Positions 275-62,903 of a stretch of DNA of 64,000 nt are shown here, piece by piece (positions within the stretch are counted from its first letter, which is position 1; each line of letters opens with the position of its first letter). Where the stretch lies: the NCBI GenBank assembly GCA_024685175.1, contig JAIKWD010000004.1, positions 3,622 through 67,621 on the forward strand, in the 5' to 3' direction. Under the pieces are notes generated by a model, which saw only the letters and a program-made list of their open reading frames with translations, was not told the origin of the DNA and made no database searches. Source of the stretch: Bacteroidales bacterium (lineage in GTDB: Bacteria; Bacteroidota; Bacteroidia; Bacteroidales; WCHB1-69). The translations under genes and the position numbers were made by a program.

Positions 275-302
275 GAGATGAGAGATTATAGATGATAGAT
301 TG
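275..302 (+). repeat. heptamer array (RAGATKR)x4
   Basis: GAGATGA GAGATTA TAGATGA TAGATTG. Plus-strand stops at 279, 289, 293 and 296 cover all 3 frames. Confidence 0.8.
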
Positions 303-322
303 TTATTCACCACACCTGTACT

Positions 323-346
323 GGTTCATTGTTTTATTGGTTCATT
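323..346 (-). repeat. octamer array GGTTCATT GTTTTATT GGTTCATT
   Basis: Abuts the stop codon at 349-351. On the minus strand it gives TGA, TAA and TGA in frames 2, 0 and 1. Confidence 0.8.
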
Positions 347-348
347 TT

Positions 349-1557
349 TTAGAACAACGGTAGGCCTAACAGGGTGGCGAACAACGAACCCAGATAAGTG
401 CCGAGGGCGTAGCCTACCAGACCGATGGCGATACCGCTGATGAGCACCTTCTTGTTGCCCAATGCTTCCACGACGGGCGGAACGAATGGCGGGGAACACA
501 ACAAACTGATGTGTCCTACGGAGAACAGGTCGCCGCTGACTTTGGCGGCACGGCAGAACAACAGATGCAGGACGATGGAAGTGACCATCACAAACAGGAT
601 GTACCACATAATCGTCAACGACGAGCTATCGATCTTGGTCAGGTCGAACATAGAGGCTACCACGACACTGAAGATCAGGATGAAGAACATACCCAACTCA
701 AACGTCTTGGGCAACTCCCTGACTTTCTTGCTGAAAGAGGCGATGATGGCCAATGTGGTGATGGTGAGGATGACGACCAACTCGTTGATTTTGCCTACGA
801 TGAGGATGGAGAGACCGACGCCCACGCCCAGCATTGCAATGGAAAGCAACAAACCGAGCATCATCTTGCCGAAGGTCTTGGCCTTGAGCATTCCGCGGTA
901 GTTCTCGAATGTGCCTTCGGAAATGGCTTTTGGGTCCACGTCATCGTCTACGGAAGTCTCGTCCTTAAAAGGCAGGAACTTGCGAAACAGCTTGTAGCCG
1001 CCAGCGAGGATGAAGATGATGAAGGGTAGGGTAACGATCTCCTCGAAAGCCAATGTGATGCTGATAGTGTTGGGGTCTGCGTGCACCATCTCGCCTAGGG
1101 CGGCGAAGTTCAACGTGCCGCCCGTGTATATGCCCGTCATCATTACGGCCACCTTCTTGAACTCTTCGGCACTTTCGAAATCTTTGGTTCGGAAGATGTA
1201 ATACCCGGCTACCAAGGCAATGGCCACGGACAAGACACCGCCGATCAACACGGCCAACGTCTTGGGCAGCGACTTGGTCCACAATTTGAAGTCGGAGTTG
1301 AACAACATCAACGGGATGGCCAACGGCACGCACACGCTCATCAAGTTTTTCTGGACACTCGTGAGCAACTCAGCCCCACCTTCGCCGGCGGAGGGAAGAA
1401 ACCCGAAAGCCGTGTTCAACAGGGCGATGATGATACCTACTGCGTATGCCAAGATGACCGTTCCGATCTTCTGAGCCCATTTGTATTTGTTGAATAATAA
1501 AATGATAAGCACTGGGAAAATGAAATATCCGGCTATCATTAAATATGTACTGACCAT
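349..1557 (-). CDS. polytopic inner-membrane protein, DUF819-like
   Basis: 402-aa ORF with about 10 or more hydrophobic segments. A -7 box lies 41 nt upstream. The family assignment is from memory only. Confidence 0.55.
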   Translation of the reverse strand: MVSTYLMIAGYFIFPVLIILLFNKYKWAQKIGTVILAYAVGIIIALLNTAFGFLPSAGEGGAELLTSVQKNLMSVCVPLAIPLMLFNSDFKLWTKSLPKTLAVLIGGVLSVAIALVAGYYIFRTKDFESAEEFKKVAVMMTGIYTGGTLNFAALGEMVHADPNTISITLAFEEIVTLPFIIFILAGGYKLFRKFLPFKDETSVDDDVDPKAISEGTFENYRGMLKAKTFGKMMLGLLLSIAMLGVGVGLSILIVGKINELVVILTITTLAIIASFSKKVRELPKTFELGMFFILIFSVVVASMFDLTKIDSSSLTIMWYILFVMVTSIVLHLLFCRAAKVSGDLFSVGHISLLCSPPFVPPVVEALGNKKVLISGIAIGLVGYALGTYLGSLFATLLGLPLF

Positions 1558-1597
1558 AATGCTATGTGTTAATAATTGTTAATTCTATTGAGAGGCA

Positions 1598-1605
1598 CAA
1601 AGATA
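1598..1605 (-). promoter_or_regulatory. Bacteroidota -7 box TAnnTTTG
   Basis: TATCTTTG, 41 nt before the ATG at 1557. Confidence 0.5.
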
Positions 1606-1616
1606 CAATTTTTTAA

Positions 1617-1660
1617 CAATGAACCAATGAACTAATCATTCCTAATTCCAAATTCTTAAC
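1617..1660 (+). repeat. 8/7-nt array CAATGAAC x2 + TAATCAT TCCTAAT TCCAAAT TCTTAAC
   Basis: Plus-strand stops at 1620, 1628, 1633, 1643 and 1657 cover all 3 frames. Lies just upstream of the promoter at 1672. Confidence 0.8.
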
Positions 1661-1671
1661 TGCTTTTTTTG

Positions 1672-1679
1672 TATCTTTG
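1672..1679 (+). promoter_or_regulatory. Bacteroidota -7 box TAnnTTTG
   Basis: TATCTTTG, 22 nt before the ATG at 1701. Confidence 0.55.
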
Positions 1680-1700
1680 CCAGCCTAAAAAACTAAACCT

Positions 1701-3365
1701 ATGGATACTGTACCTGTTTTTTGTGTTACTCTTAACAAAATGATGGATGTCCCCTATGGTATGTCGTTGGGGGAAATGGCAGCACAGAACCACATCAAAC
1801 TTACCGATGACATCTTGGGCGCTTTGGTGAACAACAAGGTGCGTGATTTGACCTATCGGGTGCACAAACCTGCCATTATAGATTTTTTCGACTATATGTC
1901 TACCTACGGCCACGATATGTATGTGCGTTCGTTGTATTTCCTTTTGTGCAAAGCAGTCGACGATCTGTTGCCCCGCAAGGTAAAATTGCATATCAAGCAT
2001 TCCATTTCGGGAGGGCGTTACTGTACGATAACTAATATGGACGAAACCTTAGACGAGGATCTGGTGAATAGACTGTATAAACAGATGCGTCTGGTCGTGG
2101 AGAAAAACATACCCTTTGAACGCGTCGGTATGATTACGCCCGATGCCATCAAGATGTTCCAAGACCATGGTTTGGAGGATAAATTTGCCTTGTTCAAGAA
2201 CCGTGATCGAATTTTTACCTCCGTGTATTGTCTGGAGGATACCGTCAACTATTATTATGGCTTTATGGTGCCTTCTACAGGATATCTCAAGATGTTCGGA
2301 TTGGAGAAGTACGAAAGCGGTATGTTGTTGAAGGTTCCCTCTGCCAAGAATATCAACGCCATTCCCAAGACTCGGCAGTTTCCGAAATTGTTCGCCGTGT
2401 ACAAACAAAACAAGGAGTGGGCCGAACAGATGGGTGTGCCCCACGTGAGCGATATGAACCAGTTGGTGGAAGACGGAAAGGCGCAGGACACGATCCTGAT
2501 GGCCGAGGCCTTCCAGGAAAAGCGCATCGCTTCAGTGGCCGAGGAGATCAAGAACCGTGGCAACGTGAAGATGGTGCTTATTAGCGGTCCGTCCAGCTCG
2601 GGCAAGACCACCACCTGCAAGCGACTCTCCGTGCAATTGGGCGTGCTTGGCTATCATCCCGTGCAGATCTCCGTGGATGACTTCTTCGTGGAACGCGAAG
2701 AGACTCCAAAGGACAAGGACGGCAAGTACGACTTCGAAGCGCTGGAAGCCGTCGACCTGAAACTGTTCAACAAAACGCTCTCGGAACTCATTCAAGGAAA
2801 GTGCGTTGAACTCCCGACTTTTGATTTTGCCAATGGAACCAAACGATGGACGGGCAAGTCCATTCAACTGGACGAAAAATCCATTATGGTCATTGAAGGC
2901 ATACACTGTCTGAATCCGCGCCTCACCGAGATGGTGCCCGACGACATCAAGTTCAAGATTTTTGTGTCCGCTTTGACCTCCATCTCCATTGACCGTCAGA
3001 ATCCCATCCCCACCACGGACAACCGGCTTATCCGTCGTATTGTGCGCGACTACAACTACCGTGGATACTCGGCGATGGACACGTTGCGGCGTTGGCGCAG
3101 TGTGCGCAATGGCGAAGAGAAGAACATCTTCCCGTTCCAAGAGAATGCGGACGAGATGATCAACACCTCGCTCATCTTCGAGTTGGGGGTGCTCAAACCC
3201 TATGCCATCGCCATTCTGCGCGAAGTGCCGGAGACCGCTGTGGAGTTTGCCGAGGCCACGCGCCTGCTCAAGTTTCTATCCTTCTTCAAGACCATTCCGG
3301 AGAAGGCCATCCCTGAAACCTCCATCCTGCGCGAGTTTGTGGGCGGAAGCAAATTCTCCTACTGA
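1701..3365 (+). CDS. uridine/nucleoside kinase-family protein with N-terminal TGS-like extension
   Basis: 554 aa. P-loop ISGPSSSGKTTT and a PRK/uridine-kinase-like core (VIEGIHCLNP). A -7 box lies 22 nt upstream. Confidence 0.7.
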   Translation: MDTVPVFCVTLNKMMDVPYGMSLGEMAAQNHIKLTDDILGALVNNKVRDLTYRVHKPAIIDFFDYMSTYGHDMYVRSLYFLLCKAVDDLLPRKVKLHIKHSISGGRYCTITNMDETLDEDLVNRLYKQMRLVVEKNIPFERVGMITPDAIKMFQDHGLEDKFALFKNRDRIFTSVYCLEDTVNYYYGFMVPSTGYLKMFGLEKYESGMLLKVPSAKNINAIPKTRQFPKLFAVYKQNKEWAEQMGVPHVSDMNQLVEDGKAQDTILMAEAFQEKRIASVAEEIKNRGNVKMVLISGPSSSGKTTTCKRLSVQLGVLGYHPVQISVDDFFVEREETPKDKDGKYDFEALEAVDLKLFNKTLSELIQGKCVELPTFDFANGTKRWTGKSIQLDEKSIMVIEGIHCLNPRLTEMVPDDIKFKIFVSALTSISIDRQNPIPTTDNRLIRRIVRDYNYRGYSAMDTLRRWRSVRNGEEKNIFPFQENADEMINTSLIFELGVLKPYAIAILREVPETAVEFAEATRLLKFLSFFKTIPEKAIPETSILREFVGGSKFSY

Positions 3366-4138
3366 TGATAGCATTGATTGGTTCTGGTAATGTGGCCACC
3401 TGGATAGCGGGCAGGTTGCGCGATTCCGACGAGTTTCGCATCGGACAGGTCTATAGCCGCCATCTCGACAATGCCAAGAAGTTGGCGGATTCGCTGGGCG
3501 CCAAAGCCATCGACGACCTGAAAATGTTGGATCCCGCTTGCGATATCTTCCTGTTTGCCCTTCGCGACGACGCCTATCCCGAGATCTTGAACGAGATTCC
3601 GTTCAAAATGTCCATTGCCCTGCACACCGCTGGCTCAGTCTCTCAGCATATCTTCAAAGATCACGCCGAGTTGTATGGCGTGCTCTATCCTTTGCAGTCC
3701 TTTTCCAAACAGACCGATATGTCCGCCTTGGAAGTCCCCTTGTTCGTGGAAGGCGACAGACTTGGCAAGGCCAAGGACATTGTTATGCGATTGGCGGCTA
3801 TGCTTTCGAACAAGAGCGGAGAGATGACGGAGGAGCAGCGCAAGGTGGTGCACTTGGCCGCCGTTTTCGCCTGCAATTTCAGCAACGCGATGTGCGGCAT
3901 CGCCGACGATATCCTCCGCGACCACGATATGAGTCTGGAAGTCTTGATGCCCTTGTTGCAGCACTCGCTGGATAAACTCAAGACGATGTCGCCGAAACAG
4001 GCGCAGACCGGTCCCGCAGCACGAGGCGACACGGTAGTGATGGGGCAGCAACTCTTTGCCCTGAAAGACGAGCGCCTCCAGGCTATTTATCGGGAGTTGT
4101 CCGATTACATTTTATCCCAATACGAAGAAAAAGCGTGA
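3365..4138 (+). CDS. Rossmann-fold NADP-oxidoreductase-like protein (DUF2520 type)
   Basis: 257 aa with N-terminal LIGSGNVA dinucleotide-binding motif. Its start overlaps the upstream stop by 1 nt (TGATG). Confidence 0.55.
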   Translation: MIALIGSGNVATWIAGRLRDSDEFRIGQVYSRHLDNAKKLADSLGAKAIDDLKMLDPACDIFLFALRDDAYPEILNEIPFKMSIALHTAGSVSQHIFKDHAELYGVLYPLQSFSKQTDMSALEVPLFVEGDRLGKAKDIVMRLAAMLSNKSGEMTEEQRKVVHLAAVFACNFSNAMCGIADDILRDHDMSLEVLMPLLQHSLDKLKTMSPKQAQTGPAARGDTVVMGQQLFALKDERLQAIYRELSDYILSQYEEKA

Positions 4139-4216
4139 TTTTGACAACTCCATCCTATTAACATTGTATGTGAATTACTTTTTTCTAGGGGTAGTTGCAG
4201 ATTATGAAAAAAACGT

Positions 4217-4224
4217 TACCTTTG
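4217..4224 (+). promoter_or_regulatory. Bacteroidota -7 box TAnnTTTG
   Basis: TACCTTTG, 58 nt before the ATG at 4282. Confidence 0.45.
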
Positions 4225-4281
4225 CGCCGCTTTCGATAGAAATAGGAAGCAATTCTGTATAATTTTAAAAATCAAATCAAT

Positions 4282-5355
4282 ATGCAAAAAAAAGGTAATA
4301 AATACGGTACGCACCGTGTGATTGAACCGAAAGGTGTTCTCCCACAACCCGCCAACAAGATTGATAACAATATGGACGAGATCTACGACAACGAGATCCT
4401 CATTGATGTCCAGACCCTGAATATAGATTCCGCTTCTTTTACGGATATTCACAACTATGCCAAGCAACAGGCTGGCGAAGGTGCCACTGAAGAGCAAGTT
4501 ATGGAAGAAGTAAAGAAAGAGATGCTCCTCAATGTCGAATTGCAAGGCAAACACCGTAACCGTAGAACCGGCTCCGGCGGTATGCTCCTCGGTAAGGTTG
4601 AGAAGATCGGCGACGCCCTCAAGGGCAAGATCGACCTCAAGGAAGGCGACCGTATCGCTACGCTCGTCAGCCTCAGCCTCACCCCGCTCCGCATCGACGA
4701 GATCTTGGAAATCCGTCCCGATGTGGACCAGGTGGACATCAAGGGCAAAGCCATTCTCTTCGAAAGCGGCATCTATGCCAAGATCCCGAGCGACCTGCCC
4801 GAGAAACTCGCTTTGTCTGCCCTTGACGTGGCCGGCGCACCTGCCCAAACGGCCAAGTTGTGCCAATATGGCCAGACTGTCGTCATCCTCGGCGCAGGCG
4901 GCAAGAGCGGTATGCTCTGCTGCTACGAGGCCAAGAAACGTGTCGGTGTCACCGGTAAGGTCATCGGCATTGCCAACAGCCCGAAGAGTACCCAACGCAT
5001 CAAGGACCTCGGCTTCTGCGATATCGTGGAGTCTGCCGCAGGTATGACCCCTGTTCAAGTGTACGAGCTTGTCGAAAGACTCACCAACGGCAAAATGGCC
5101 GACGTCACGATCAACTGTGTCAACGTCCCCGATCAGGAGATGACTGCCGTGCTTTGCACAAAGGATGATGGCATCGTCTATTTCTTCTCAATGGCCACCA
5201 GCTTCACGAAAGCCAGTCTCGGTGCCGAAGGCATCGGAAGCGATGTGAATATGATCATGGGTAATGGCTATACGAAGGGACATGCCGAGTTTACGTTGCA
5301 AGAACTTCGCGAGTGCAAGGCACTCCGCGACATCTTCACGGAACTCTATGCATAA
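4282..5355 (+). CDS. kdd: L-erythro-3,5-diaminohexanoate dehydrogenase-like protein
   Basis: 357 aa. The N-terminus KYGTHRVIEPKGVLPQPANKIDN...ILIDVQTLNIDSASF matches recalled Kdd sequences. There is a GAGGKSG nucleotide-binding loop and a terminator at 5391-5416. Confidence 0.6.
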   Translation: MQKKGNKYGTHRVIEPKGVLPQPANKIDNNMDEIYDNEILIDVQTLNIDSASFTDIHNYAKQQAGEGATEEQVMEEVKKEMLLNVELQGKHRNRRTGSGGMLLGKVEKIGDALKGKIDLKEGDRIATLVSLSLTPLRIDEILEIRPDVDQVDIKGKAILFESGIYAKIPSDLPEKLALSALDVAGAPAQTAKLCQYGQTVVILGAGGKSGMLCCYEAKKRVGVTGKVIGIANSPKSTQRIKDLGFCDIVESAAGMTPVQVYELVERLTNGKMADVTINCVNVPDQEMTAVLCTKDDGIVYFFSMATSFTKASLGAEGIGSDVNMIMGNGYTKGHAEFTLQELRECKALRDIFTELYA

Positions 5356-5390
5356 CCTCACACCATATAGTAATAATTTTGACGATGAAA

Positions 5391-5416
5391 GCGGGGCCGA
5401 GAACCCCGCTTTTTTA
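5391..5416 (+). terminator. intrinsic terminator after kdd
   Basis: GCGGGG-N7-CCCCGC followed by a T-run. Confidence 0.75.
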
Positions 5417-5417
5417 T

Positions 5418-5425
5418 TATCTTTG
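5418..5425 (+). promoter_or_regulatory. Bacteroidota -7 box TAnnTTTG
   Basis: TATCTTTG, 19 nt before the ATG at 5444. Confidence 0.55.
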
Positions 5426-5443
5426 CAACTCAAAAATAACCCT

Positions 5444-6250: not shown

Positions 6251-6253
6251 ATT

Positions 6254-12047: not shown

Positions 12048-13730
<1,683 letters not shown>

Positions 13731-14013: not shown

Positions 14014-14133
14014 AGTAATTGTTTTTAATGTTTATAATTATTTTTGTTGTTTACTAAAAAACGCGATTAATGTTTTACAAAATCTGTGCCAAAAAACACC
14101 AATGCGTTTTTTCTGACAATAATAATATGCAAA

Positions 14134-14153: not shown

Positions 14154-14170
14154 GGATATTGGATATTGGA
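14154..14170 (+). repeat. heptamer repeat GGATATT x2.4
   Basis: GGATATT GGATATT GGA. Confidence 0.7.
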
Positions 14171-14193: not shown

Positions 14194-14252
14194 AAAATCT
14201 TAAATCTCACGTCTCAAATCTCAAATCTCAAATCTAAATCTCTCACCTCACG
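14194..14252 (-). repeat. heptamer array (NAAATCT / TCTCAAA)x8
   Basis: TCTCAAA x3 is perfect at 14212-14232, with degenerate flanking units. The minus strand reads TTTGAGA, giving TGA every 7 nt. Confidence 0.85.
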
Positions 14253-20450: not shown

Positions 20451-20460
20451 AATTTACTAG

Positions 20461-20488
20461 TTTAATATTTAATGTTTAATTCTTAATT
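20461..20488 (-). repeat. heptamer array (TTTAATN)x4 between the two FKBP genes
   Basis: TTTAATA TTTAATG TTTAATT CTTAATT. Minus-strand TAA every 7 nt. Confidence 0.85.
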
Positions 20489-20494
20489 TTTTAC

Positions 20495-22836: not shown

Positions 22837-22876
22837 GATGTTATGGCGTGAATGATTGACGGCTACATAAAAAAAA

Positions 22877-22974
22877 GGGTAAGCTACTTGCATCGCATCG
22901 CTACAACCGACGTACCCTTGCTGTATTCCTACCCTGGGGGAGTTAGAAGGGAGCAGATCGTACAAGACTTACCC
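22877..22974 (-). ncRNA. ffs: signal recognition particle RNA (small bacterial 4.5S type)
   Basis: Minus-strand 98-nt RNA GGGUAAG...CUUACCC with 7-bp terminal pairing. The central domain-IV signature AGG-GUA-GGAA-UAC-AGCA is present (GNRA tetraloop hairpin at plus 22923-22932, AGCA at 22919-22922). A U-run follows on the minus strand (plus A-run 22869-22876). Confidence 0.7.
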
Positions 22975-23007
22975 GCCGCAAAAATAGGAAAATTTTCGTT
23001 TTGCGGC
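22975..23007 (-). terminator. hairpin after the decarboxylase gene, just upstream of ffs
   Basis: GCCGCAAAA-N15-TTTTGCGGC, with no downstream U-run. Confidence 0.4.
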
Positions 23008-28411: not shown

Positions 28412-28419
28412 CAAAGATA
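28412..28419 (-). promoter_or_regulatory. Bacteroidota -7 box TAnnTTTG
   Basis: TATCTTTG, 22 nt before trxB. Confidence 0.55.
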
Positions 28420-28432: not shown

Positions 28433-28460
28433 TTAGTGAGGAGTTAGGAGTGAAGGGTGA
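28433..28460 (+). repeat. purine-rich heptamer array x4
   Basis: TTAGTGA GGAGTTA GGAGTGA AGGGTGA. Confidence 0.75.
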
Positions 28461-28463
28461 CTT

Positions 28464-28524
28464 TATCTCTATCATCTCTCATCTCAAGTCTTAAATCTCT
28501 ATTCTCAAATCCCAAATCATTCCC
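28464..28524 (-). repeat. pyrimidine-rich heptamer array x8
   Basis: TCATCTC TCATCTC AAGTCTT AAATCTC TATTCTC AAATCCC AAATCAT (approximate phase). Confidence 0.7.
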
Positions 28525-28538
28525 GCCCCCAGACTATC

Positions 28539-28570
28539 GGTTCATTGAATTATTGGTTCATTGGATTATT
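28539..28570 (-). repeat. octamer array GGTTCATT GAATTATT GGTTCATT GGATTATT
   Basis: Same GGTTCATT unit and 16-nt spacing as at 323-346. Confidence 0.8.
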
Positions 28571-28703
28571 GTTTTTTTTCTTTTGCTCTGAAAAACAAAA
28601 CCGTATACTATTGTTAATCAATACGATATGTAAATTTTAAAGTGTTGTCACGCCAAAAGAAAAAAAACTTCAAGATATAAGTTGTTAATAATCAAAAAAA
28701 ATG

Positions 28704-28711
28704 TATTTTTG
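28704..28711 (+). promoter_or_regulatory. Bacteroidota -7 box TAnnTTTG
   Basis: TATTTTTG, 44 nt before rplS. Confidence 0.55.
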
Positions 28712-28754
28712 CAGCCTCAAAAAATAAGCGTAAAAATTTAAAAGAGATATAGAG

Positions 28755-29111
28755 ATGAAACAAGAATTGATTCAGTACGTAGAGGACAATTTCATTACAA
28801 AACAAGAATTTCCGAAATTTAAGGCTGGTGACACTGTCACTGTTTCCTATAGAATCGTGGAAGGCTCCAAGGAGCGTATCCAGCAATTCCAAGGCGTGGT
28901 ATTGCAAATTAACGGTTCTGGCGCTACCAAGACTTTCACCGTTAGAAAGATTTCCAGCGGTATCGGCGTTGAGAGAATTTTCCCGTTCACAACTCCGATG
29001 ATTGCCGGTCTGACCGTCAACAAACGCGGTGTTGTAAGACGCGCTCGTATTTACTACTTCCGTGATCTTACTGGCAAGAAAGCCCGTATCAAAGAACGCA
29101 GAGGCCAATAG
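28755..29111 (+). CDS. rplS: 50S ribosomal protein L19
   Basis: 118 aa. [28 protein letters not shown]...[10 protein letters not shown] -7 box lies 44 nt upstream and a terminator follows downstream. Confidence 0.95.
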
Positions 29112-29133
29112 TCTTGGTAAACGCAAAACAAAA

Positions 29134-29166
29134 AAGAGGATGGACATTGTTCATCCTCTTTTTTTA
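29134..29166 (+). terminator. intrinsic terminator after rplS
   Basis: AAGAGGATG-N9-CATCCTCTT followed by T-run. Confidence 0.8.
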
Positions 29167-29223: not shown

Positions 29224-29297
29224 TGATTCCGCTGCGACTCGAACGCAGAACCTGCTGCTTAGAAGGCAGCTGCTCTATCCAGTTGAGCTACGGAACC
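29224..29297 (-). tRNA. tRNA-Arg (anticodon UCU)
   Basis: Hand-folded 74-nt cloverleaf: acceptor GGTTCCG/CGGAATC, anticodon loop CTTCTAA, T-loop TTCGAGT, discriminator A. CCA is not encoded. Confidence 0.9.
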
Positions 29298-29312: not shown

Positions 29313-29387
29313 TCGGGATAGCCTGATTCGAACAGGCGACCTCCTGCTCCCAAAGCAGGCGCGATAACCGGACTACGCTATATCCCG
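29313..29387 (-). tRNA. tRNA-Pro (anticodon UGG)
   Basis: Hand-folded 75-nt cloverleaf: acceptor CGGGATA/TATCCCG, anticodon loop TTTGGGA, T-loop TTCGAAT. A -7 box ends 12 nt upstream of the 5' end. Confidence 0.9.
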
Positions 29388-37587: not shown

Positions 37588-38616
37588 ATGTCTGTTTATA
37601 TTCTTGGTATAGAATCTTCTTGTGACGATACATCTGCCGCCGTAGTGGACGGCACCACCATACTTTCCAATGTCATTGCCAGTCAGAAAGTGCATGCTGA
37701 GTTTGGAGGAGTTGTGCCCGAGTTGGCGTCGCGCGCCCATCAGCAGAATATCATCCCTGTGATTGACACTGCATTAAAGCGTGCAAAGATAAATAAAAAT
37801 CAGTTATCTGCCATCGCTTTTACAAATGGTCCAGGATTGCTTGGCTCTTTATTGGTGGGCAGCTCCTTCGCCAAGGCTATGGCTTATAGTCTGCAAGTGC
37901 CCTTGATCCAGGTCGATCACTTGCAAGGTCATGTGCTGGCCAACTTCCTCAATAAGCCGGATGAGGATAAGCTAAAACCTTCATTTCCATTCCTTTGCCT
38001 TACGGTCTCGGGCGGCCATACCCTGCTGTTGCAGGTCAACGACTACTTCGATATGCAGCGTTTGGGCGGCACCATCGACGATGCCGCGGGCGAAGCCTTT
38101 GACAAGGCAGCCAAGATCCTCGGCCTTCCATATCCTGGAGGCCCCGTCATCGACAAATACGCCCAAGAGGGCGATCCCAAGAAATTCCAGTTCGCTGTCG
38201 CCCACGTGCCCTATTTGGACTATAGCTTCAGCGGACTCAAGACCTCGTTTCTCTATTTTGTCAGAGATCATCTCAAGGAAAATCCCAATTTTATCGAAGA
38301 GAATATCCACGATTTGGCGGCGTCTATCCAGTATGCTATCGTCAAGTCGTTGATGGACAAGGTAAAGAAAGCCTTGAAGACCTCTCCATGTAAGGATTTG
38401 GTGCTTGCCGGCGGCGTGTCCGCCAATTCAGGCTTGCGCAACGCCGCCATTGACGTGGCCCGTCGCTATCATCGCAACCTCTTCTTGCCCACGTTGGATC
38501 TCACCACGGACAATGCTGCCATGATCGCCGTATGCGGATATTTCAAATATTTAAAAAAAGAATTCGTGAACGTCGACGTCGTCCCCTACAGCAGCGAGAA
38601 AAACAAAAACCTCTAA
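37588..38616 (+). CDS. tsaD: tRNA N6-adenosine threonylcarbamoyltransferase
   Basis: Start moved to ATG 37588 (MSVYILGIESSCDDTSAAVV...), 21 nt after a -7 box. The ORF-track extension is antisense to tamB. Confidence 0.93.
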   Translation: MSVYILGIESSCDDTSAAVVDGTTILSNVIASQKVHAEFGGVVPELASRAHQQNIIPVIDTALKRAKINKNQLSAIAFTNGPGLLGSLLVGSSFAKAMAYSLQVPLIQVDHLQGHVLANFLNKPDEDKLKPSFPFLCLTVSGGHTLLLQVNDYFDMQRLGGTIDDAAGEAFDKAAKILGLPYPGGPVIDKYAQEGDPKKFQFAVAHVPYLDYSFSGLKTSFLYFVRDHLKENPNFIEENIHDLAASIQYAIVKSLMDKVKKALKTSPCKDLVLAGGVSANSGLRNAAIDVARRYHRNLFLPTLDLTTDNAAMIAVCGYFKYLKKEFVNVDVVPYSSEKNKNL

Positions 38617-38644
38617 CTCCTCATCTCTCATTCCTAACTCCTAA
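38611..38644 (-). repeat. heptamer array CTCTAA CTCCTCA TCTCTCA TTCCTAA CTCCTAA
   Basis: Contains both the tsaD stop (38614-38616) and the permease stop (38634-38636). Confidence 0.8.
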
Positions 38645-41847: not shown

Positions 41848-41882
41848 TTTGCATTTTGAACTTTGCATTTTGAACTTTGAAT
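41848..41882 (+). repeat. heptamer/14-mer array TTTGCAT TTTGAAC x2 + TTTGAAT
   Basis: A perfect 14-nt duplication that abuts the nuclease stop at 41882. Confidence 0.85.
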
Positions 41883-42760: not shown

Positions 42761-42820
42761 TCTATAATCTAAAAATCAAAATTCAAAATCCATTATCTAT
42801 TATCAATTCCTCATTCCTAA
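42761..42820 (-). repeat. degenerate ~7-nt array (TCWAWWW-like)x8
   Basis: Units start at 42761, 42768, 42776, 42783, 42789, 42796 and 42803. The array ends at the GH3 stop (42817-42819). Confidence 0.6.
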
Positions 42821-46345: not shown

Positions 46346-46384
46346 ATTGATAACCTGTTTAGTTGCTAAGTTGTGAATGAAAAT

Positions 46385-46419
46385 GCTATCCGCTACCCGC
46401 TATCTGCTGTCTGCTACCT
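46385..46419 (-). repeat. heptamer array (GCTRYCY)x5
   Basis: GCTATCC GCTACCC GCTATCT GCTGTCT GCTACCT. On the minus strand it reads RDTAGCR units directly after the pfkA stop. Confidence 0.9.
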
Positions 46420-53855: not shown

Positions 53856-55115
53856 ATGTATGGCCTTGCCGACTGCAACAACTTTTTCGCCTCTTGCGAA
53901 CGAGTCTTCCGTCCTGACTTGAACGGGAAACCGGTCATCATTTTGTCCAACAACGACGGTTGTGTGATTTCGCGTTCCAACGAGGCCAAACGCATCGGCA
54001 TCAAGATGGGCCAACCGTACTATCAACTCAAGCAGGTGATAAAACAGTACGGGGTTGAGGTGTTCTCCTCGAACTTCGCCTTGTATGGGGATATGTCCCG
54101 CAGGGTACAGATTACGTTGCAGGAACTCGTGCCTGCCACCGAGGTCTACTCCATCGACGAGTCCTTCCTTGACCTTCGGGGCATTGAGGAGTCGGAGTTG
54201 GACGCCCTCGGCCATCATATCTCCTATGTTGTGCAACGCAATACGGGCGTGCCCATCAGCGTGGGCATTGCCCCGACGAAGACCCTGGCCAAGATTGCCT
54301 CCAAACTCTGCAAACAGTACCCCAAACTGCACGGCAGTTGCTTTATGTATCGCCCTGAGGATATAGAGAAGGTGTTGCGCAAGTTTCCCGTGGAAGACGT
54401 TTGGGGCATTGGCCGCCGCTTTTCCAAGATGCTGCAGAGTAGGGGAATACATACGGCCCAGGACTTCGCCAATATGCCGATGAGCCTCGTGCAGTCGCTG
54501 ATGCACGTGGGGGGCGTCAAGACGTGGCGCGAACTGCACGGCGAGCCCTGCGTCGAGTTTGAGGAACAGGCCAAGGACAAACAGCAGATTACCGTCTCAC
54601 GCAGTTTCGCCAAGGAGTTGACCGAAGTGGACGACTTGCAGCAGCAAGTGGCGCTTTTCACCTCGATGGCGGCCGAAAAACTGCGCAAGCAAGAGAGCGT
54701 CTGCAATGCCGTGATGGTCTTTATGCTCACCAACCGCCACCGCGAGGATAAACCACAACAGTTCGCCAACCGCTTGATTCCGTTGCCCGTGGGCACCGAC
54801 AGCACGCTGGAATTGGTCAACGTGGCCACCCGTGCCGTAGCGGAACTGGCCCGTTTCGGCTACGCATACAAGAAAGCGGGCGTGATCTTGTCCGACATTT
54901 TGCCGAAAAATGCATTCCAGACTGCCCTCTTTGACGATGTGGACCATCAAAAGCAATCGAAACTGATGTCCGCCTTGGATGCTATCAACAAGAAGCAAGG
55001 TCCACGCTCCGTGGTAGTTGCCAGTGCCGGTTTCGACGGTGTCAAGATGAACCGTAATCACCTCTCGCCTAACTATACCACGGAGTGGGAAGACATACTA
55101 GTAGTTAGTAGCTAG
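53856..55115 (+). CDS. umuC: Y-family DNA polymerase, UmuC-like
   Basis: 419 aa. MYGLADCNNFFASCERVFRPDL...SIDESFLDL. Lies directly after umuD. Confidence 0.85.
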   Translation: MYGLADCNNFFASCERVFRPDLNGKPVIILSNNDGCVISRSNEAKRIGIKMGQPYYQLKQVIKQYGVEVFSSNFALYGDMSRRVQITLQELVPATEVYSIDESFLDLRGIEESELDALGHHISYVVQRNTGVPISVGIAPTKTLAKIASKLCKQYPKLHGSCFMYRPEDIEKVLRKFPVEDVWGIGRRFSKMLQSRGIHTAQDFANMPMSLVQSLMHVGGVKTWRELHGEPCVEFEEQAKDKQQITVSRSFAKELTEVDDLQQQVALFTSMAAEKLRKQESVCNAVMVFMLTNRHREDKPQQFANRLIPLPVGTDSTLELVNVATRAVAELARFGYAYKKAGVILSDILPKNAFQTALFDDVDHQKQSKLMSALDAINKKQGPRSVVVASAGFDGVKMNRNHLSPNYTTEWEDILVVSS

Positions 55116-55140
55116 TAGTCAGTGGCCAGTTAGCAGAGAC
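55099..55140 (+). repeat. heptamer array TAGTAGT TAGTAGC TAGTAGT CAGTGGC CAGTTAG CAGAGAC
   Basis: Six in-phase heptamers. The first three give two TAG in each reading frame and include the umuC stop (55113-55115). Confidence 0.9.
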
Positions 55141-55160
55141 GATGCACGCATCGTCTCTGC
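55133..55160. terminator. perfect 12-bp-arm hairpin with CACG loop between convergent umuC and the DUF4139 gene
   Basis: GCAGAGACGATG-CACG-CATCGTCTCTGC, with no U-run. Confidence 0.55.
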
Positions 55161-56899: not shown

Positions 56900-56927
56900 G
56901 TAGGGACGCAGCACGCTGCGTCCCTAC
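56900..56927 (-). terminator. perfect 12-bp-arm hairpin with CACG loop after the nfeD-like gene
   Basis: GTAGGGACGCAG-CACG-CTGCGTCCCTAC. Same architecture as 55133-55160. Confidence 0.55.
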
Positions 56928-56930
56928 AAA

Positions 56931-56958
56931 TGCTAACTGCTATCGGCTAACCGCTAAT
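56931..56958 (-). repeat. heptamer array (NGCTAWY)x4
   Basis: TGCTAAC TGCTATC GGCTAAC CGCTAAT. Minus-strand TAG at 56956, 56949, 56942 and 56935; the first is the nfeD-like stop codon. Confidence 0.9.
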
Positions 56959-58309: not shown

Positions 58310-58330
58310 TGAATTTTACAATGATTAAGA

Positions 58331-61300
58331 TTAATCCAACTCTATTTTATAGGGAACGGGTAAGCGCAAGTTCTTAATGAAAGACTCAGGCTCCACCTTA
58401 GTGCTGAAGTTGAAGAAATCGGCGTAGTAGACATTGTTGTCTTCCACGATGCGGACGGCAAAAGGAATCTTGCCTTTGTGCTTCTCCAATGAAGCCTTGA
58501 GGGCATGGGCTAGCTCCGCACTCACATCGTTGATGCTGAATGCTAGCCGAATCTCTTGACAGAGCTTTTCATAGGAGTCTTCCAGATAGAGGATTTGAAT
58601 GGGCACTACGTCTGCACGTATTGACTCCGAGCCGTCTTTGTTGCGCCAGCTCTTTACCACTAGTCGAGCTCGAACGAACAGACGTTTTCCCGGTTCCAAA
58701 AGATGCCGATACTTGGTGTAGTCTTCGCCAACGAGGAACCAGTTCCAGGAGCCGTCGTAGTCTTCCAGCGTAACACTTCCGTAATCTTTGTTGGAACGTG
58801 TGACCCCAGTGCGGATGTCAGTGACAATGCCGGCAAAAGCGAACGGCTTTCCACTGGAGTAGGCCTTCTTCATGAATTCTTCGTCGTTGAGCTTGGCCAG
58901 ACTGAGATTGCAGTAGTTCTGAATGATAGGTTTGAACTCATCCAGTGGATGTGCGGTGATGTAGAATCCCGCCACCTCCTTCTCGTGTTTTACCTGCTCG
59001 TAGGCACTCCAGGGCTCGCATTGAGGTATCTCAAGCTTACTCTCTTCTTGCAGACTCTCGTCTATATCGAAAATGGAGATCTGGTTTTGAGCTCCTTTCT
59101 GGCTGTTCCCGGAATAGGCGATGAGCTTGTCTATAAAAGTCTGGTTGTTGCCGTAATCGATGAAGAACTGGGCGCGATGGATCTCTTTGAATCCATCGAA
59201 CGCCCCACCCATGGCCAAAGTCTCGATGCAACGTTTGTTGCAGTTGCGCAAGTTGATACGTGACATGAAGTCGAAGATGTCCTTGTATGGGCCATGTGCA
59301 TTGCGCTCTTCCAAGATGCTGTCTACTGCGCTTGCCCCAACGCCTTTCAAGGCGGCGAGACCGAAGCGGATGTCACCATGGGAATTTACGGTAAAGTTAA
59401 ACTCCGACTCGTTGATGTCAGGGCCCAACAACCGGATGTCCTTCTTCTGTGCATCTTCGATGAGAACGCTGATGGATTCTATATCACTGATACTGTTGGT
59501 CATGTTGGCAGCCATGAACTCTGCCCGATAGTGGGCCTTCAAGTATGCGGTCTGGTATGCCACCCATGAATAACAGGTGGCGTGAGACTTGTTGAATGCG
59601 TATGAGGCGAACTTCTCCCAGTCACTCCATATTTTCTCCAATACTTTGGGATCGTGACCATTTTCAGTGCCCTGTTTGATGAATTTGGGCTTGAGATGGT
59701 CCAACTTGTCCCGTTGTTTCTTGCCCATTGCTTTTCGCAAAGTGTCGGATTCGCCGCGGGTGAAGTTGGCCAGCAGACGTGACAAAAGCATAACCTGCTC
59801 TTGATATACTGTGATGCCGTACGTGTCTTTCAAGTAACGCTCCATGATGGGAATGTCGTACTTGATCTCTTCATCGCCGTGCTTGCGGCGGATGAACTGC
59901 GGTATGTAGTCCATAGGGCCGGGACGATAGAGGGCATTCATGGCTATGAGGTCTTCAAACTTGCTGGGCTTCAGCTCTTTGAGGTATTTCTGCATACCTG
60001 CGGATTCAAACTGGAACGTGGCCACCGTATCACCTTCGCAGAACAATTGATAAGTCTCGGGGTCGTCAATGGGGATGGCGTCAATGTCAATGTCTATGCC
60101 CTTGGATTTCTTGATGTTGGCAAGGGTGTTCTTGATGATAGTTAAAGTCTTTAGGCCGAGGAAGTCCATCTTGATGAGGCCCACGTCCTCGATGACGGAT
60201 CCTTCGTATTCTGTGACGAGCACGTCTTCTTTGGAGTTTTTGTCTTCTACGGTGGACAAAGGAGCGAAGTTGGTGAGGTCGTCGGCACCGATGATGACTC
60301 CGCACGCGTGGATGCCGGTCTGTCTAACTGTTCCTTCCAACTGGGAGGCGTAATAGAGCACATCGTGAACCTTTTGACCACCATTTTCAAAGGCATCCTT
60401 CATTTCAGGGACCATTGAGAGGCAATTCTTGATGTTGACCTTCGGCGCTTTGCCCGTCTTGGCGTCTTCGTGAAACCGGTCGGGCACGAGCTTGGCCAAC
60501 CGGTTCGACTCGTTAAGGTCCAAGTCTTGCACCCTTGCCACGTCCTTGATGCTGGACTTGGTGGCCATGGTGCCGTAGGTGATGATGTGGGCCACGCGTT
60601 CCTGGCCATATTTGTTGGTGATCCAGTCGAGTACCTTGTACCGCCCGTCGTCGTCAAAGTCCACGTCGATATCGGGTAAGGAGATTCGGTCTGGATTTAG
60701 AAAACGTTCGAACAGCAAGTCGTATTTGAGCGGGTCTATGTCGGTGATCTTGAGGCAGTAGGCTACCACTGATCCAGCTGCGGAGCCACGTCCAGGGCCC
60801 ACGGATACGCCCATGTTGCGGGCGGCTGCAATGAAGTCCTGCACGATGAGGAAGTAGCCGGGAAAGCCCATGTTGCGCATGACGCCCAGCTCGAAGTCGA
60901 TGCGTTCCCGAATATCGTCAGGTACTGGATCCCCGTAGCGTTTGACGGCTCCGTCGTAGGTGAGTTTGCGCAGGTAGTCGGACTCCAGCTTGATACGGTA
61001 GGCGCGCTCCATGCCGCCCAACTTCTCGATTCGGCCTTTGCTCTCCTCGTCGGCTTCAAATTCGGCCTTGAGGTCCTCTTCCGTGAATTTTTGCTTGTAG
61101 CTTTCCACGGTGCCAAAAGATTCAGGGATGTCGAACACCGGCATGATGGGATCGTGCTTGAGTTTGTAGCATTCCACCTTGTCCACGATCTCTTGGGTGT
61201 TGGCCAAGGCCTCAGGCACGTCGGCGAAGATGGCGGCCATTTCGTCGGGTGTTTTGAGCCATTCTTGCTTGGTGTAATGCATGCGGTCTGTGTCGCTAAG

Positions 61301-62146
61301 CTTCTTGCCTGTGCTGAGACAGATAAGGCGGTCGTGTGCTTCGCCATCCTCTTCGTCCACGAAGTGGGCGTCGTTGGTGGCAATCACCTTGGTGTGGGTC
61401 TCTTCGGCCAGTTGGAGGATAACCTTGTTGACAATCTGTTGGTGCTCGTAAACGGTACGGTCGCCGCCCGGCTTGTCGGTCTTGTGGCGTTGGATCTCAA
61501 GGTAGTAGTCATCGCCGAAGATGCCTTTGTACCAGGCGATGACCTCACGGGCTCGGTCCAAATCCTCGTTCATGATGGCGCGTGGCACCTCGCCCGCCAA
61601 GCAGGCAGAGGACACAATAACCCCCTCGTGGTACTTGGCCAGCAATTCGCGATCAATGCGCGGACGCTGATACTTGCCATCAATCCAGCCGTAGGAGACC
61701 ATCTTGCAAAGGTTGTGATAGCCAGTCTCGTTCTTGGCCAGCAAGATAAGATGATAGCCGCTGAAGTTCTCCTTTTGCTCTTTCACCAAACGGCTTCCCG
61801 TGGGGTTGCTGCGGGTCTGCTTGGCAACGTATGCCTCGCAACCGAAGATAGGCTTGAAAAGCTGGCTTTTGGCTTTGTCTAGCTGTGCTTGGCATTCGAC
61901 AATCTTTTCTTCGTCCTCGAGTTCAGCCAACTCTTTCTCCAATGTTGACACCTTGTTCTTGACGGAACTATTGTGCTTGTCTACATAGTCGGAGAACTCC
62001 TTGATGCCGAACATATTGCCATGGTCCGTGATGGCCAGGGCGTTCATTCCGTTGGCAAGGCATTTTTCAACAAGCTTTGGGATCTTCGACATGCCGTCGA
62101 GGATGGAATATTCCGTATGGACGTGAAGATGCGTAAATTGGGTCAT
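58331..62146 (-). CDS. dnaE: DNA polymerase III alpha subunit
   Basis: 1271 aa. PHP domain (FTHLHVHTEYSILDG), then palm, fingers and OB regions typical of DnaE. Confidence 0.97.
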   Translation of the reverse strand: MTQFTHLHVHTEYSILDGMSKIPKLVEKCLANGMNALAITDHGNMFGIKEFSDYVDKHNSSVKNKVSTLEKELAELEDEEKIVECQAQLDKAKSQLFKPIFGCEAYVAKQTRSNPTGSRLVKEQKENFSGYHLILLAKNETGYHNLCKMVSYGWIDGKYQRPRIDRELLAKYHEGVIVSSACLAGEVPRAIMNEDLDRAREVIAWYKGIFGDDYYLEIQRHKTDKPGGDRTVYEHQQIVNKVILQLAEETHTKVIATNDAHFVDEEDGEAHDRLICLSTGKKLSDTDRMHYTKQEWLKTPDEMAAIFADVPEALANTQEIVDKVECYKLKHDPIMPVFDIPESFGTVESYKQKFTEEDLKAEFEADEESKGRIEKLGGMERAYRIKLESDYLRKLTYDGAVKRYGDPVPDDIRERIDFELGVMRNMGFPGYFLIVQDFIAAARNMGVSVGPGRGSAAGSVVAYCLKITDIDPLKYDLLFERFLNPDRISLPDIDVDFDDDGRYKVLDWITNKYGQERVAHIITYGTMATKSSIKDVARVQDLDLNESNRLAKLVPDRFHEDAKTGKAPKVNIKNCLSMVPEMKDAFENGGQKVHDVLYYASQLEGTVRQTGIHACGVIIGADDLTNFAPLSTVEDKNSKEDVLVTEYEGSVIEDVGLIKMDFLGLKTLTIIKNTLANIKKSKGIDIDIDAIPIDDPETYQLFCEGDTVATFQFESAGMQKYLKELKPSKFEDLIAMNALYRPGPMDYIPQFIRRKHGDEEIKYDIPIMERYLKDTYGITVYQEQVMLLSRLLANFTRGESDTLRKAMGKKQRDKLDHLKPKFIKQGTENGHDPKVLEKIWSDWEKFASYAFNKSHATCYSWVAYQTAYLKAHYRAEFMAANMTNSISDIESISVLIEDAQKKDIRLLGPDINESEFNFTVNSHGDIRFGLAALKGVGASAVDSILEERNAHGPYKDIFDFMSRINLRNCNKRCIETLAMGGAFDGFKEIHRAQFFIDYGNNQTFIDKLIAYSGNSQKGAQNQISIFDIDESLQEESKLEIPQCEPWSAYEQVKHEKEVAGFYITAHPLDEFKPIIQNYCNLSLAKLNDEEFMKKAYSSGKPFAFAGIVTDIRTGVTRSNKDYGSVTLEDYDGSWNWFLVGEDYTKYRHLLEPGKRLFVRARLVVKSWRNKDGSESIRADVVPIQILYLEDSYEKLCQEIRLAFSINDVSAELAHALKASLEKHKGKIPFAVRIVEDNNVYYADFFNFSTKVEPESFIKNLRLPVPYKIELD

Positions 62147-62184
62147 ATTGCGAGGTCGATGGTTTTAGGTTGAAATGTAGCCTG

Positions 62185-62192
62185 CAAATATA
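62185..62192 (-). promoter_or_regulatory. Bacteroidota -7 box TAnnTTTG
   Basis: TATATTTG, 39 nt before dnaE. Confidence 0.55.
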
Positions 62193-62222
62193 CAAAAAAT
62201 GTATTTGGAATCGCAACCGCAA

Positions 62223-62271
62223 CCTCAATCATCCTCCCTCTCACATCCTATCTCATACTTCTCATTCCTCA
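62223..62271 (-). repeat. pyrimidine-rich heptamer array x7
   Basis: CCTCAAT CATCCTC CCTCTCA CATCCTA TCTCATA CTTCTCA TTCCTCA. Directly follows the stop at 62274-62276. Confidence 0.75.
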
Positions 62272-62273
62272 TT

Positions 62274-62825
62274 TTAGAAGTCGGAGTCTATCTCTTTGAG
62301 GTCGATGATGGCGTTGCGACCGTCGATGTAGGACAAGACGAGGGGAAAGTTGGCGCGGTAACTGCATTGTGAGAGCACGAGGCGGTTGCACACGTTGGTG
62401 GTGGTGTCGGCGTTGAGTTGCCACACCGAGTAGTCCGTGGTGAACTTGGCGTATTTGTCCAGCTCGTCCAGGCCGTTCAGCTCCTGGAAGTCGCCGCCGT
62501 ACTTTTCGGTCAGTTTGGTCTTGAGGGCGGAATAGGTGTAGCTGGTGCTGCGGTTGAAGTTGACCACGACGATATAGACGAGGTGGGTCTTTGCGGCGGC
62601 GCGGATCTCGAGTTTGACGCGTTCGCCGGCGAAGGCGCCTTTCATAAACACCGTGTTGTCATGGCTGGTGTTGACATCCTGCACGAAGCCCTTGCCTTTA
62701 AGCTTGTTGACGAACGTGTTCATCGTGCAATTCATATTGATGCCGAGGAACTTCATCGGAGCCGTCTGCGCCGAAGCCACCAGCCCAACGGCCAAGATGG
62801 TAAGGAGTATGACGAATTTCTTCAT
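62274..62825 (-). CDS. secreted protein, function unknown
   Basis: 183 aa. Signal peptide MKKFVILLTILAVGLVASAQ. A -7 box lies 29 nt upstream. Confidence 0.55.
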   Translation of the reverse strand: MKKFVILLTILAVGLVASAQTAPMKFLGINMNCTMNTFVNKLKGKGFVQDVNTSHDNTVFMKGAFAGERVKLEIRAAAKTHLVYIVVVNFNRSTSYTYSALKTKLTEKYGGDFQELNGLDELDKYAKFTTDYSVWQLNADTTTNVCNRLVLSQCSYRANFPLVLSYIDGRNAIIDLKEIDSDF

Positions 62826-62853
62826 TGTTGTTGTCTTTATCGCTAATTCGCGG

Positions 62854-62861
62854 CAAAGATA
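62854..62861 (-). promoter_or_regulatory. Bacteroidota -7 box TAnnTTTG
   Basis: TATCTTTG, 29 nt before the ATG at 62825. Confidence 0.55.
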
Positions 62862-62868
62862 GTATTTT

Positions 62869-62903
62869 TAGGATATAGGGGATAGGAGATAGGAATTAGG
62901 GAA
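62869..62903 (+). repeat. heptamer array (TAGGNNN)x5
   Basis: TAGGATA TAGGGGA TAGGAGA TAGGAAT TAGGGAA, with TAG at an exact 7-nt spacing. Confidence 0.9.

Follow-up and report, generated by a model that had tools for sequence, protein, structure and literature searches.

Here, we analyzed a stretch of 64,000 nucleotides (hereafter the window) from an uncultured Bacteroidales bacterium (assembly GCA_024685175.1, contig JAIKWD010000004.1, positions 3,622 to 67,621 of the forward strand), in which many intergenic spacers contain short tandem arrays, mostly of degenerate 7-nt units. Eighteen such arrays had been noticed in a previous reading of the letters alone (hereafter the sequence-only reading), which did not recognise them as a described class of element and considered frame-independent translation stops or insulators as their main possible role. 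Our results make it probable that these arrays are heptanucleotide microsatellites that belong to the long simple sequence repeat (SSR) class of prokaryotes, are remodelled by slippage and fill unconstrained spacer DNA. They represent a dense Bacteroidales case of this known heptanucleotide repeat class, most likely generated by slippage. The arrays have a strong 7-nt periodicity that is restricted to noncoding DNA, they are polymorphic by unit lengths between strains, their units turn over between species, and they display neither sequence conservation nor RNA structure.

Periodicity and natural variation of the arrays

All 18 arrays were found where they had been described. Tandem Repeats Finder (TRF) independently recovered 16 of them (all except 38611-38644 and 62223-62271), with periods of 7, 14 or 21 in 12 arrays and of 8 or 16 in the other four. 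When the 24 spacers of at least 40 nt were pooled, the identity at lag 7 was 0.354 compared with 0.279 ± 0.0085 for dinucleotide-preserving shuffles (z = 8.9), with harmonics at lags 14 (z = 3.2) and 21 (z = 3.1). Coding DNA of the window had a period-3 signal only and no lag-7 signal; the autocorrelation check suggested in the sequence-only reading (intergenic versus coding versus shuffled DNA) thus revealed an excess in the spacers alone. Individually, 12 of the 18 arrays scored higher than the top window of the entire set of shuffled spacers (family-wise P ≤ 0.02), array 62223 was borderline (P = 0.07), and the arrays at 275, 323, 1617, 28433 and 38611 were not significant on their own. In total, the arrays comprise 687 nt compared with 3296 nt of spacer sequence, approximately a fifth of the intergenic DNA, and they occur in 13 of the 25 spacers of at least 40 nt, slightly fewer than the roughly 14 of about 25 estimated before. 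Regarding the two periods proposed previously, the 7-nt period was clearly supported, whereas the 8-nt period is a minor component (pooled lag 8, z = 2.2; four 8/16-nt arrays). TRF repeats with periods of 6, 9 or 12 in the window lie in genes, except for one weak 9/19-nt repeat at 14016-14053.

The arrays are a real, statistically strong and correctly located feature. The alternative that such patterns arise by chance in spacer DNA that is AT-rich and of low complexity, which would agree with the lack of individual significance of five of the 18 arrays, is refuted by the shuffles, by the family-wise test and by strain alleles that differ by indels of exactly 7 nt.

These alleles were observed in conspecific contigs from several independent assemblies, which were obtained by exact-protein look-ups (with no match for six window proteins) and are 99.3-99.7% identical to the window. 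One conspecific contig of 209 kb spans the entire window (pieces L115, L082, L091, L105 and L095). Between this contig and the window we identified seven indels, none of which was in coding DNA. Four were exactly 7 nt long and all of these were inside arrays (1638, 14212, 41847 and 46384), one of 191 nt abutted array 62869, and the remaining two, of 1-2 nt, were elsewhere in spacers (22114 and 29158). At array 46385-46419, five alleles of 38, 45 or 52 nt were present in 11 conspecific sequences; at array 41848-41882, the alleles of three sequences measured 41, 48 and 55 nt and their units were homogenised; and array 62223-62271 has been rebuilt in L096 by a 17-nt deletion together with cleaner units (CTCAACC CTCAACC CTCAATC). 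No length change was observed among the conspecific sequences for the degenerate arrays 42761 and 38611. The 7-nt copy-number alleles in arrays 1617, 14194, 41848 and 46385, the restructured array 62223 and the 191-nt indel abutting array 62869 support slippage-generated minisatellites, one of the roles considered in the sequence-only reading. The 191-nt indel is located at the edge of array 62869-62903 (window 62902-62912; L095 9733-9914, L097, L101 and L102), and the extra segment begins with further heptamers, TGAGATT TGAGACG TAGGATG.

Substitutions amounted to 0.6-2.5% in arrays (6.6% in L096), mostly 0.5-1.6% in other spacer DNA and 0.3-0.7% in coding DNA. Arrays thus accumulate substitutions no more slowly than the remaining spacer DNA and faster than coding DNA, and they give no sign of conservation. 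According to the sequence-only reading, a functional element would be refuted by unconserved arrays that vary like neutral microsatellites, and this is what the comparison of strains revealed.

A similar turnover was observed between species. The groES-groEL spacer of a sister species contains the heptamers ATAGTGA TCAGTAA TCAGGGA ACAGTAA ACAGTTA, unrelated to the 8-mer array found at this place in the window. In locus L012, arrays of one unit family are located directly after the stops of dnaE, umuC and a type IX secretion system (T9SS) gene; the window spacers after dnaE and the T9SS gene are 14-27 nt long and array-free, and an unrelated TAGTAGT array follows umuC. Several distant DnaE loci have different units just downstream of dnaE. 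Among 83 non-redundant Bacteroidales loci (1.56 Mb), 68 noncoding period-7 arrays were identified, compared with at most 21 arrays for each of the other periods from 4 to 12, and 11 period-7 arrays overlapped open reading frames (ORFs). The lag-7 excess decreased from 0.065 for the window to 0.033 for its clade and 0.007 for the rest of the order.

Perfect (TTTGAAC)x4 repeats were present in metagenome contigs from widely differing environments (more than 120 contigs, with G+C contents of 29-68%), and 80 such contigs (L125-L204) contained 105 further heptamer arrays with other units, compared with at most 33 arrays for any other period. In other Bacteroidales, adjacent inverted pairs, in which a unit array is followed by its reverse complement, were often seen (L039 1403-1502 and 16108-16211, L017 5226-5317, L032 433-542, L059 15354-15435 and L012 6937-7013); these could form long hairpins and suggest template switching. 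A rumen metagenome-assembled genome (MAG) contained a 1.4-kb noncoding stretch dominated by long GAATGNW arrays of up to 113 nt each (L007 1074-3131), a satellite much larger than any array of the window.

Most likely, strand slippage, or possibly unequal exchange, during DNA replication creates and keeps remodelling the arrays through gain and loss of whole 7-nt units, and point mutation between these events makes the copies degenerate. Since a 7-nt unit shifts the reading frame, arrays could persist only in unconstrained DNA. They would then fill the free space between the stop codon, a terminator-like hairpin, the promoter (TAnnTTTG, the consensus of the Bacteroidetes-type -7 box) and the next start. 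We infer that slippage generates the arrays and that they are mostly neutral filler.

Relation to known heptanucleotide repeats

In most prokaryote genomes, heptanucleotides are the most abundant class of long SSRs, for which polymerase slippage was proposed (Mrázek et al., 2007, as quoted in PMC4679880 and PMC4692102); the unit length of 7 nt has been proposed to correspond to the stretch of DNA that the replicative polymerase holds. Intergenic heptanucleotide tandem repeats have been described for many bacteria, including some Bacteroidetes (PMC4679880; PMC4692102), which contradicts the previous view of the arrays as an undescribed element class. The arrays share with the prokaryotic heptanucleotide long SSRs the tandem 7-nt units, the predominance of this period among the repeats of noncoding DNA, the confinement of periods that are multiples of 3 to genes and the proposed origin by replication slippage. 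All features that define membership of this class were found, namely head-to-tail 7-nt units, lengths greater than expected by chance, a mostly noncoding location and copy change by whole units. Compared with the long SSRs of the Mrázek survey, the window arrays are unusually dense, are mostly short and degenerate (3-8 copies) and have many unit sequences, and their host, an uncultured rumen/gut-type Bacteroidales lineage, is not among the repeat-rich genomes that the later papers quote from that survey.

Apart from PMC4679880, no paper linking heptamer repeats with Bacteroidales was found in the literature searched, and none described such arrays for the order in general. In PMC4679880, TAACTGA intergenic direct repeats were reported from Beggiatoaceae, cyanobacteria and five Bacteroidetes including Paludibacter; in forward orientation, these repeats introduce stops in each of the three frames and inevitably terminate ORFs, and close relatives have shorter, repeat-free spacers (MacGregor, 2015). 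The TAACTGA system has one unit that is mostly located a few nt upstream of starts, whereas the window has diverse units at places ranging from stop codons to sites upstream of promoters, and TAACTGA was present in no array of the window or of the 82 other loci, in any rotation or on either strand. The G-rich GGGAATC / GGGGAYT heptamers of Xanthomonas and Nostoc (Rehm et al., 2015; PMC4692102) resemble the window arrays in that they are intergenic, sometimes occur in inverted pairs and vary in length and sequence between close relatives. However, they form G-quadruplexes, whereas the units here have on average ~31% G+C and lack G-runs: GGG or GGGG occurs only occasionally, in array 62869-62903, and not as a run of 3-5 G per unit. 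One GGGGATT-type array was seen in locus L001, not in the window.

The classic intergenic tandem heptamers are the short tandemly repeated repetitive (STRR) sequences of cyanobacteria, for which Mazel et al. in 1990 reportedly described the units CCCCAGT, TTGGTCA and CAACAGT. They are also intergenic, comprise several unit families per genome and have no established function, but their hosts belong to a different phylum. These three units occurred in 0, 0 and 3 arrays, respectively, which is within the range of permuted controls, and in none of the window. Hence, the arrays do not belong to the TAACTGA, STRR or GGGAATC unit families.

Genomic context, stop triplets and possible functions

Gene starts and one wrong ORF were corrected using the gene calls of conspecific contigs, and TAnnTTTG boxes were searched directly; a sigma-70 promoter scan was set aside because Bacteroidetes promoters differ. 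In co-directional gene pairs with a promoter, the stop of the upstream gene is followed by the array, in some cases by a hairpin, and then by the -7 box and the start. In operon-like pairs without a promoter box (such as groES-groEL, FKBP-FKBP, endonuclease-GH97, GH3-endonuclease and PFK-SIR2), the array occupies most of the spacer. Array ends are located 8-31 nt from TAnnTTTG at five promoters (1672, 14275, 28412(-), 62185(-) and 62854(-)). The nine arrays claimed to abut a same-strand stop codon all do so, and those at 275, 41848 and 62869 carry their stops antisense, as had been noted. The arrays within 28433-28570 sit in the divergent TrxR/rplS promoter region and not downstream of a gene: the minus-strand ORF 28692-29147 (151 aa, the longest there) is spurious, and the true gene at 28755-29111(+) is rplS, which encodes ribosomal protein L19. 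A start codon is found within ~15 nt of the array end only for arrays 13683, 20461 and 41848, and most arrays adjoin stops or lie upstream of promoters. ORF bodies and the intervals between the -33 and -7 promoter elements are free of arrays in the window.

The contingency SSRs of Haemophilus, Neisseria and others are located inside ORFs or between the promoter elements of surface-structure genes and switch their expression. The window arrays are similar in that whole units are gained and lost by slippage and unit-length alleles segregate in natural populations, and some lie between a stop and the next start in operon-like pairs (PFK-SIR2, endonuclease-GH97), where altered spacing might tune or switch the expression of the neighbour as in phase variation. 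However, it is very unlikely that they are contingency loci: they are outside ORF bodies and the -33/-7 interval, the flanking genes are housekeeping genes (groESL, dnaE, pfk, rplS, trxB-like) rather than genes for surface structures or host interaction, and their presence in 13 of the 25 spacers is too widespread for specific switching.

On RNA folding, the minimum free energies of the arrays were close to 0, and the arrays were no more or less structured than shuffles (mean z about 0), i.e., they are unstructured because of their base composition. An inverted-repeat scan of the window revealed nothing at the arrays, and they matched no Rfam family. The arrays thus lack the G+C-rich hairpin and subsequent U-run of intrinsic terminators; separate hairpins adjoin arrays 55099 and 56931. 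Pairing of arrays 28433 and 28464 with each other gave no more than a weak hairpin with imperfections (-16.6 kcal/mol over 106 nt).

Unstructured arrays would be accessible as single strands, which, together with the recurrence of unit families and the location of array ends close to the -7 boxes of five promoters, is consistent with binding platforms for a protein with a ~7-nt footprint, either a single-strand binder of the cold-shock-domain/S1-like type acting on the transcript or a DNA-binding factor upstream of promoters. A single-strand binder was also proposed for the TAACTGA repeats, with the precedent of CspB of Bacillus subtilis, which binds heptamer repeats with one protein per heptamer (PMC4679880). 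Nevertheless, such platforms appear unlikely, considering that one genome contains many unrelated unit sequences, that the arrays occur in both orientations relative to transcription, that unit sequence and copy number both lack conservation between strains and between species, and that base composition accounts for the lack of structure. The 9-mer AATGAACCA, shared by three of the four 8/16-nt arrays, was considered as a candidate site: its four exact copies in the window, versus ~0.5 expected from the window length, are all inside these arrays (322-346, 1618-1634 and 28538-28562) in three unrelated spacers. Although enriched, it is substituted between 99.4%-identical strains and was therefore rejected as a conserved binding site.

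The main role proposed in the sequence-only reading was that of frame-independent translation stops or insulators; arrays selected for this role would catch read-through or frameshifted ribosomes in an organism without Shine-Dalgarno-guided initiation. Several findings favour it. Nine window arrays abut a same-strand stop, and seven of these indeed provide stops in all three frames; array units are enriched in stop triplets (see below); and in L096 (13082-14332) a 2-nt deletion near the 3' end of umuC (window 55079-55115) shifts the frame, which is then closed by a TAG within the TAGTAGT array that precedes the normal stop by 7 nt (416 versus 419 aa). However, the previous baseline of 7% for three-frame stops by chance was too low, since dinucleotide shuffles give ~23% per stretch of at most 55 nt (5.6/24) and 16% per 42 nt. 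In the window, three-frame coverage after genes was 9/24 compared with 5.6 ± 1.8 expected (P = 0.057), and the total of stop triplets was 80 compared with 73.4 expected (P = 0.11). The downstream-stop shuffle test covered 589 stretches of related loci. In the array-rich clade, defined as the window and its 14 closest DnaE loci and scored over 42 nt after stops, three-frame coverage was increased (28/123 versus 19.3 ± 3.5, P = 0.01), but total stops equalled expectation (294 versus 294.6). In the 66 more distant Bacteroidales loci, there was no effect on coverage (80/466 versus 81.8) and the total was 1123 compared with 1189.5 expected. Thus, the count of stops per frame after stop codons, which had been suggested as a check, revealed no excess in totals but only a spread over the frames. 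Such a spread is inevitable when units with a stop are repeated and the period is not divisible by 3, as successive stops then fall in different frames. Similarly, arrays seem to begin at stops because an ORF that enters an array ends at its first in-frame stop, and the adjacency is therefore partly forced.

Two further results bear on a translational role. First, the enrichment of units in stops was equally strong in divergent spacers, where no ORF ends (ratio 1.34; 16 versus 11.9), and in tandem spacers (ratio 1.39; 64 versus 46.1). Second, 16 arrays carried stops on the sense strand only and seven on the antisense strand only, a difference that is inflated by L007 (six arrays of one unit family) and is not convincing as a strand bias relative to transcription. 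The equal enrichment in both types of spacers and the weak strand bias point to a preference of the repeat sequence and not a translational role. In addition, three window arrays are antisense to both neighbours, several are located upstream of promoters, and copy number varies freely. Considering the stop totals, the clade-limited coverage and the divergent spacers, the role as frame-independent stops or insulators is not supported, and we consider it quite unlikely.

On the other hand, the composition of the units weighs against the explanation favoured here, that of neutral microsatellites. Stop triplets are present on at least one strand in 68 of the 79 units, compared with 52.4 ± 3.8 for GC-matched native noncoding heptamers (z = 4.1), and 61 of 68 units were stop-bearing compared with 52.6 for letter-permuted units (P = 0.0015). 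TAA, TAG and TGA are all enriched, whereas TAT/ATA is depleted (z = -3.3). Units also recur: 24 identical pairs were found between loci versus 6.4 ± 2.6 for permuted units, one unit family (AGTTTAG / AGTTGAG / AGATTAG) follows the three different stop codons in L012, and AATGAACCA is repeated in three separate spacers of the window. This sequence preference is not predicted by pure neutral slippage of arbitrary heptamers. Ascertainment was rejected as the full cause of the stop enrichment, which is lowered but not removed by adding the 11 ORF-overlapping arrays, and so was TpA-richness, TAT/ATA and TAC/GTA being depleted. Moreover, the strain comparisons are based on few substitutions, and the 80 related loci were modelled with crude longest-ORF calls. 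A lineage-specific process or selection might favour stop-bearing units and recurring families; the arrays would then be functional punctuation in a Bacteroidales lineage without Shine-Dalgarno guidance, ending stray translation or serving as landing or binding platforms, with copy number free to vary and presence alone being important. We regard this possibility as improbable.

Individual arrays, neighbouring features and implications

Based on Pfam, the window contains ~47 genes, including groES/groEL, dnaE, umuDC, pfk, sufB, a trxB-like gene and genes for GH3 and GH97 glycoside hydrolases, TamB and a CHU_C/T9SS protein. The closest DnaE relatives are MAGs of uncultured rumen/gut Bacteroidales with at most 79% identity; these, the CHU_C/T9SS, GH97 and TamB genes and a Bacteroidales small signal recognition particle (SRP) RNA support the Bacteroidales host. 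The Rfam scan of the window identified only this SRP RNA (22873-22981(-)) and two tRNAs (29224-29297(-) and 29313-29387(-)), all away from the arrays and in array-free spacers. Two differences between conspecific strains were seen in or near genes: an in-frame 12-nt indel in the gene for a large T9SS/CUB protein (window 52553; L106) and a ~54-nt difference near the 5' end of a zinc alcohol dehydrogenase-like gene (window 4342-4397; L116).

The first three arrays surround the DUF819 gene. Array 275-302 (GAGATGA GAGATTA TAGATGA TAGATTG; TRF 273-300, period 7; 16/21 lag-7 matches, P = 0.23) is located between the start of a DUF1846-family gene and the DUF819 stop and is identical in four conspecific sequences. 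In the same spacer, the 8/16-nt array 323-346 (TRF 322-351, period 16) contains TGGTTCATT twice and thus, when read on the minus strand, the 9-mer AATGAACCA in two exact copies; its end and the DUF819 stop are 2 nt apart, and strains differ by two substitutions within it. Array 1617-1660, between the divergent DUF819 and PRK-like promoters (TAnnTTTG at 1598(-) and 1672(+)), consists of two CAATGAAC units of period 8 (TRF 1617-1636) followed by CATTCCT AATTCCA AATTCTT of period 7, and a 7-nt deletion allele is present in L115, L117 and L118.

Around groES, the 8/16-nt array 13683-13730 (TTGTTTAATTGTTGAT; TRF 13691-13727, period 8/16; family-wise P = 0.02) fills the groES-groEL spacer and is unchanged in L082 and L088. 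The divergent spacer between groES and the peptidase-M20 gene contains a perfect GGATATT repeat of 2.4 copies at 14154-14170 (100% TRF matches; P = 0.02) and ~8 copies of AAATCTC at 14194-14252 (TRF 14195-14242, score 68; P < 0.004). The -7 box of the peptidase-M20 gene follows 23 nt after the end of the latter array, one unit of which, TCTCAAA (14212-14218), is deleted in L082 and L088. Array 20461-20488 (TTTAATA TTTAATG TTTAATT CTTAATT; TRF 20452-20491; 18/21 lag-7 matches, P < 0.004) lies between two FKBP genes and is unchanged in the same two sequences.

Three arrays share the TrxR/rplS spacer. Array 28433-28460 is degenerate (TTAGTGA GGAGTTA GGAGTGA AGGGTGA; TRF 28435-28453; P = 0.14, not significant alone) and starts 14 nt from the TrxR -7 box at 28412(-); array 28464-28524 (~8 copies of ATCTCNN; TRF periods 14 and 21; P < 0.004) is loosely inverted relative to it and has an unchanged length in L091-L094; and array 28539-28570 is a 16-nt repeat of two GGTTCATTGRATTATT units (TRF 28535-28571; 15/16 lag-16 matches, P < 0.004) carrying the AATGAACC motif and the shared 9-mer.

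Array 38611-38644, found by direct reading and not by TRF (P = 0.57), is degenerate on the minus strand (TTAGGAG TTAGGAA TGAGAGA TGAGGAG), covers both stops of the convergent TsaD and OppC-like genes and has an invariant length in L105 and L106. TTTGCAT/TTTGAAC units form array 41848-41882 (TRF period 14 at 100%; P < 0.004) between the endonuclease stop and the GH97 start. Array 42761-42820 on the minus strand (TTAGGAA TGAGGAA TTGATAA TAGATAA TGGATTT TGAATTT TGATTTT TAGATTA; TRF 42766-42789; 38/53 lag-7 matches, P < 0.004) starts at the GH3 stop and has one or two substitutions with invariant length. Between the PFK stop and the SIR2 start lies array 46385-46419 (GCTATCC GCTACCC GCTATCT GCTGTCT GCTACCT; TRF 46384-46416; P < 0.004).

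Array 55099-55140 (TAGTAGT TAGTAGC TAGTAGT CAGTGGC CAGTTAG CAGAGAC; TRF 55099-55123; P = 0.003) provides the stop and the five preceding codons of UmuC and continues into a hairpin at 55135-55159. Array 56931-56958 (TGCTAAC TGCTATC GGCTAAC CGCTAAT; TRF 56932-56957; P = 0.02) holds the NfeD stop and is followed, on the strand of that gene, by a hairpin at 56902-56926. Both hairpins directly adjoin their arrays and belong to a family with the stem (T)AGRGACG...CGTCYCT(A) and folding energies of -22 to -24 kcal/mol, with further members at L008 445 and at L012 4083 and 22678. The 5' arm resembles the unit TAGAGAC; the family was seen only in the window's own clade and has no clear U-run.

Array 62223-62271, degenerate on the minus strand (TGAGGAA TGAGAAG TATGAGA TAGGATG TGAGAGG; 21/35 lag-14 matches, P = 0.07), is flanked by the stop of a 183-aa ORF and by the DnaE promoter with its -7 box at 62185(-). 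Array 62869-62903 (TAGGATA TAGGGGA TAGGAGA TAGGAAT TAGGGAA; TRF 62869-62894; P = 0.003) is antisense to both neighbours and starts 8 nt from a -7 box.

As variable number tandem repeats (VNTRs), the arrays provide ready and highly polymorphic strain markers for this uncultured species of the rumen/gut-type Bacteroidales, whose independent assemblies differ at many arrays. They also call for caution in gene calling, as the repeat sets the ends or starts of adjacent ORFs, for instance the last five codons of umuC. Our results extend the old bias towards 7-nt repeat units to Bacteroidales, where it is graded by lineage, and add a measurable preference, the enrichment of stop-type triplets independently of gene context. 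The residual interest lies in this unit preference and in the lineage-specific density of the arrays. Should the preference for 7 nt stem from a property of the replisome, a lineage so rich in arrays and natural alleles would be well suited for testing this.

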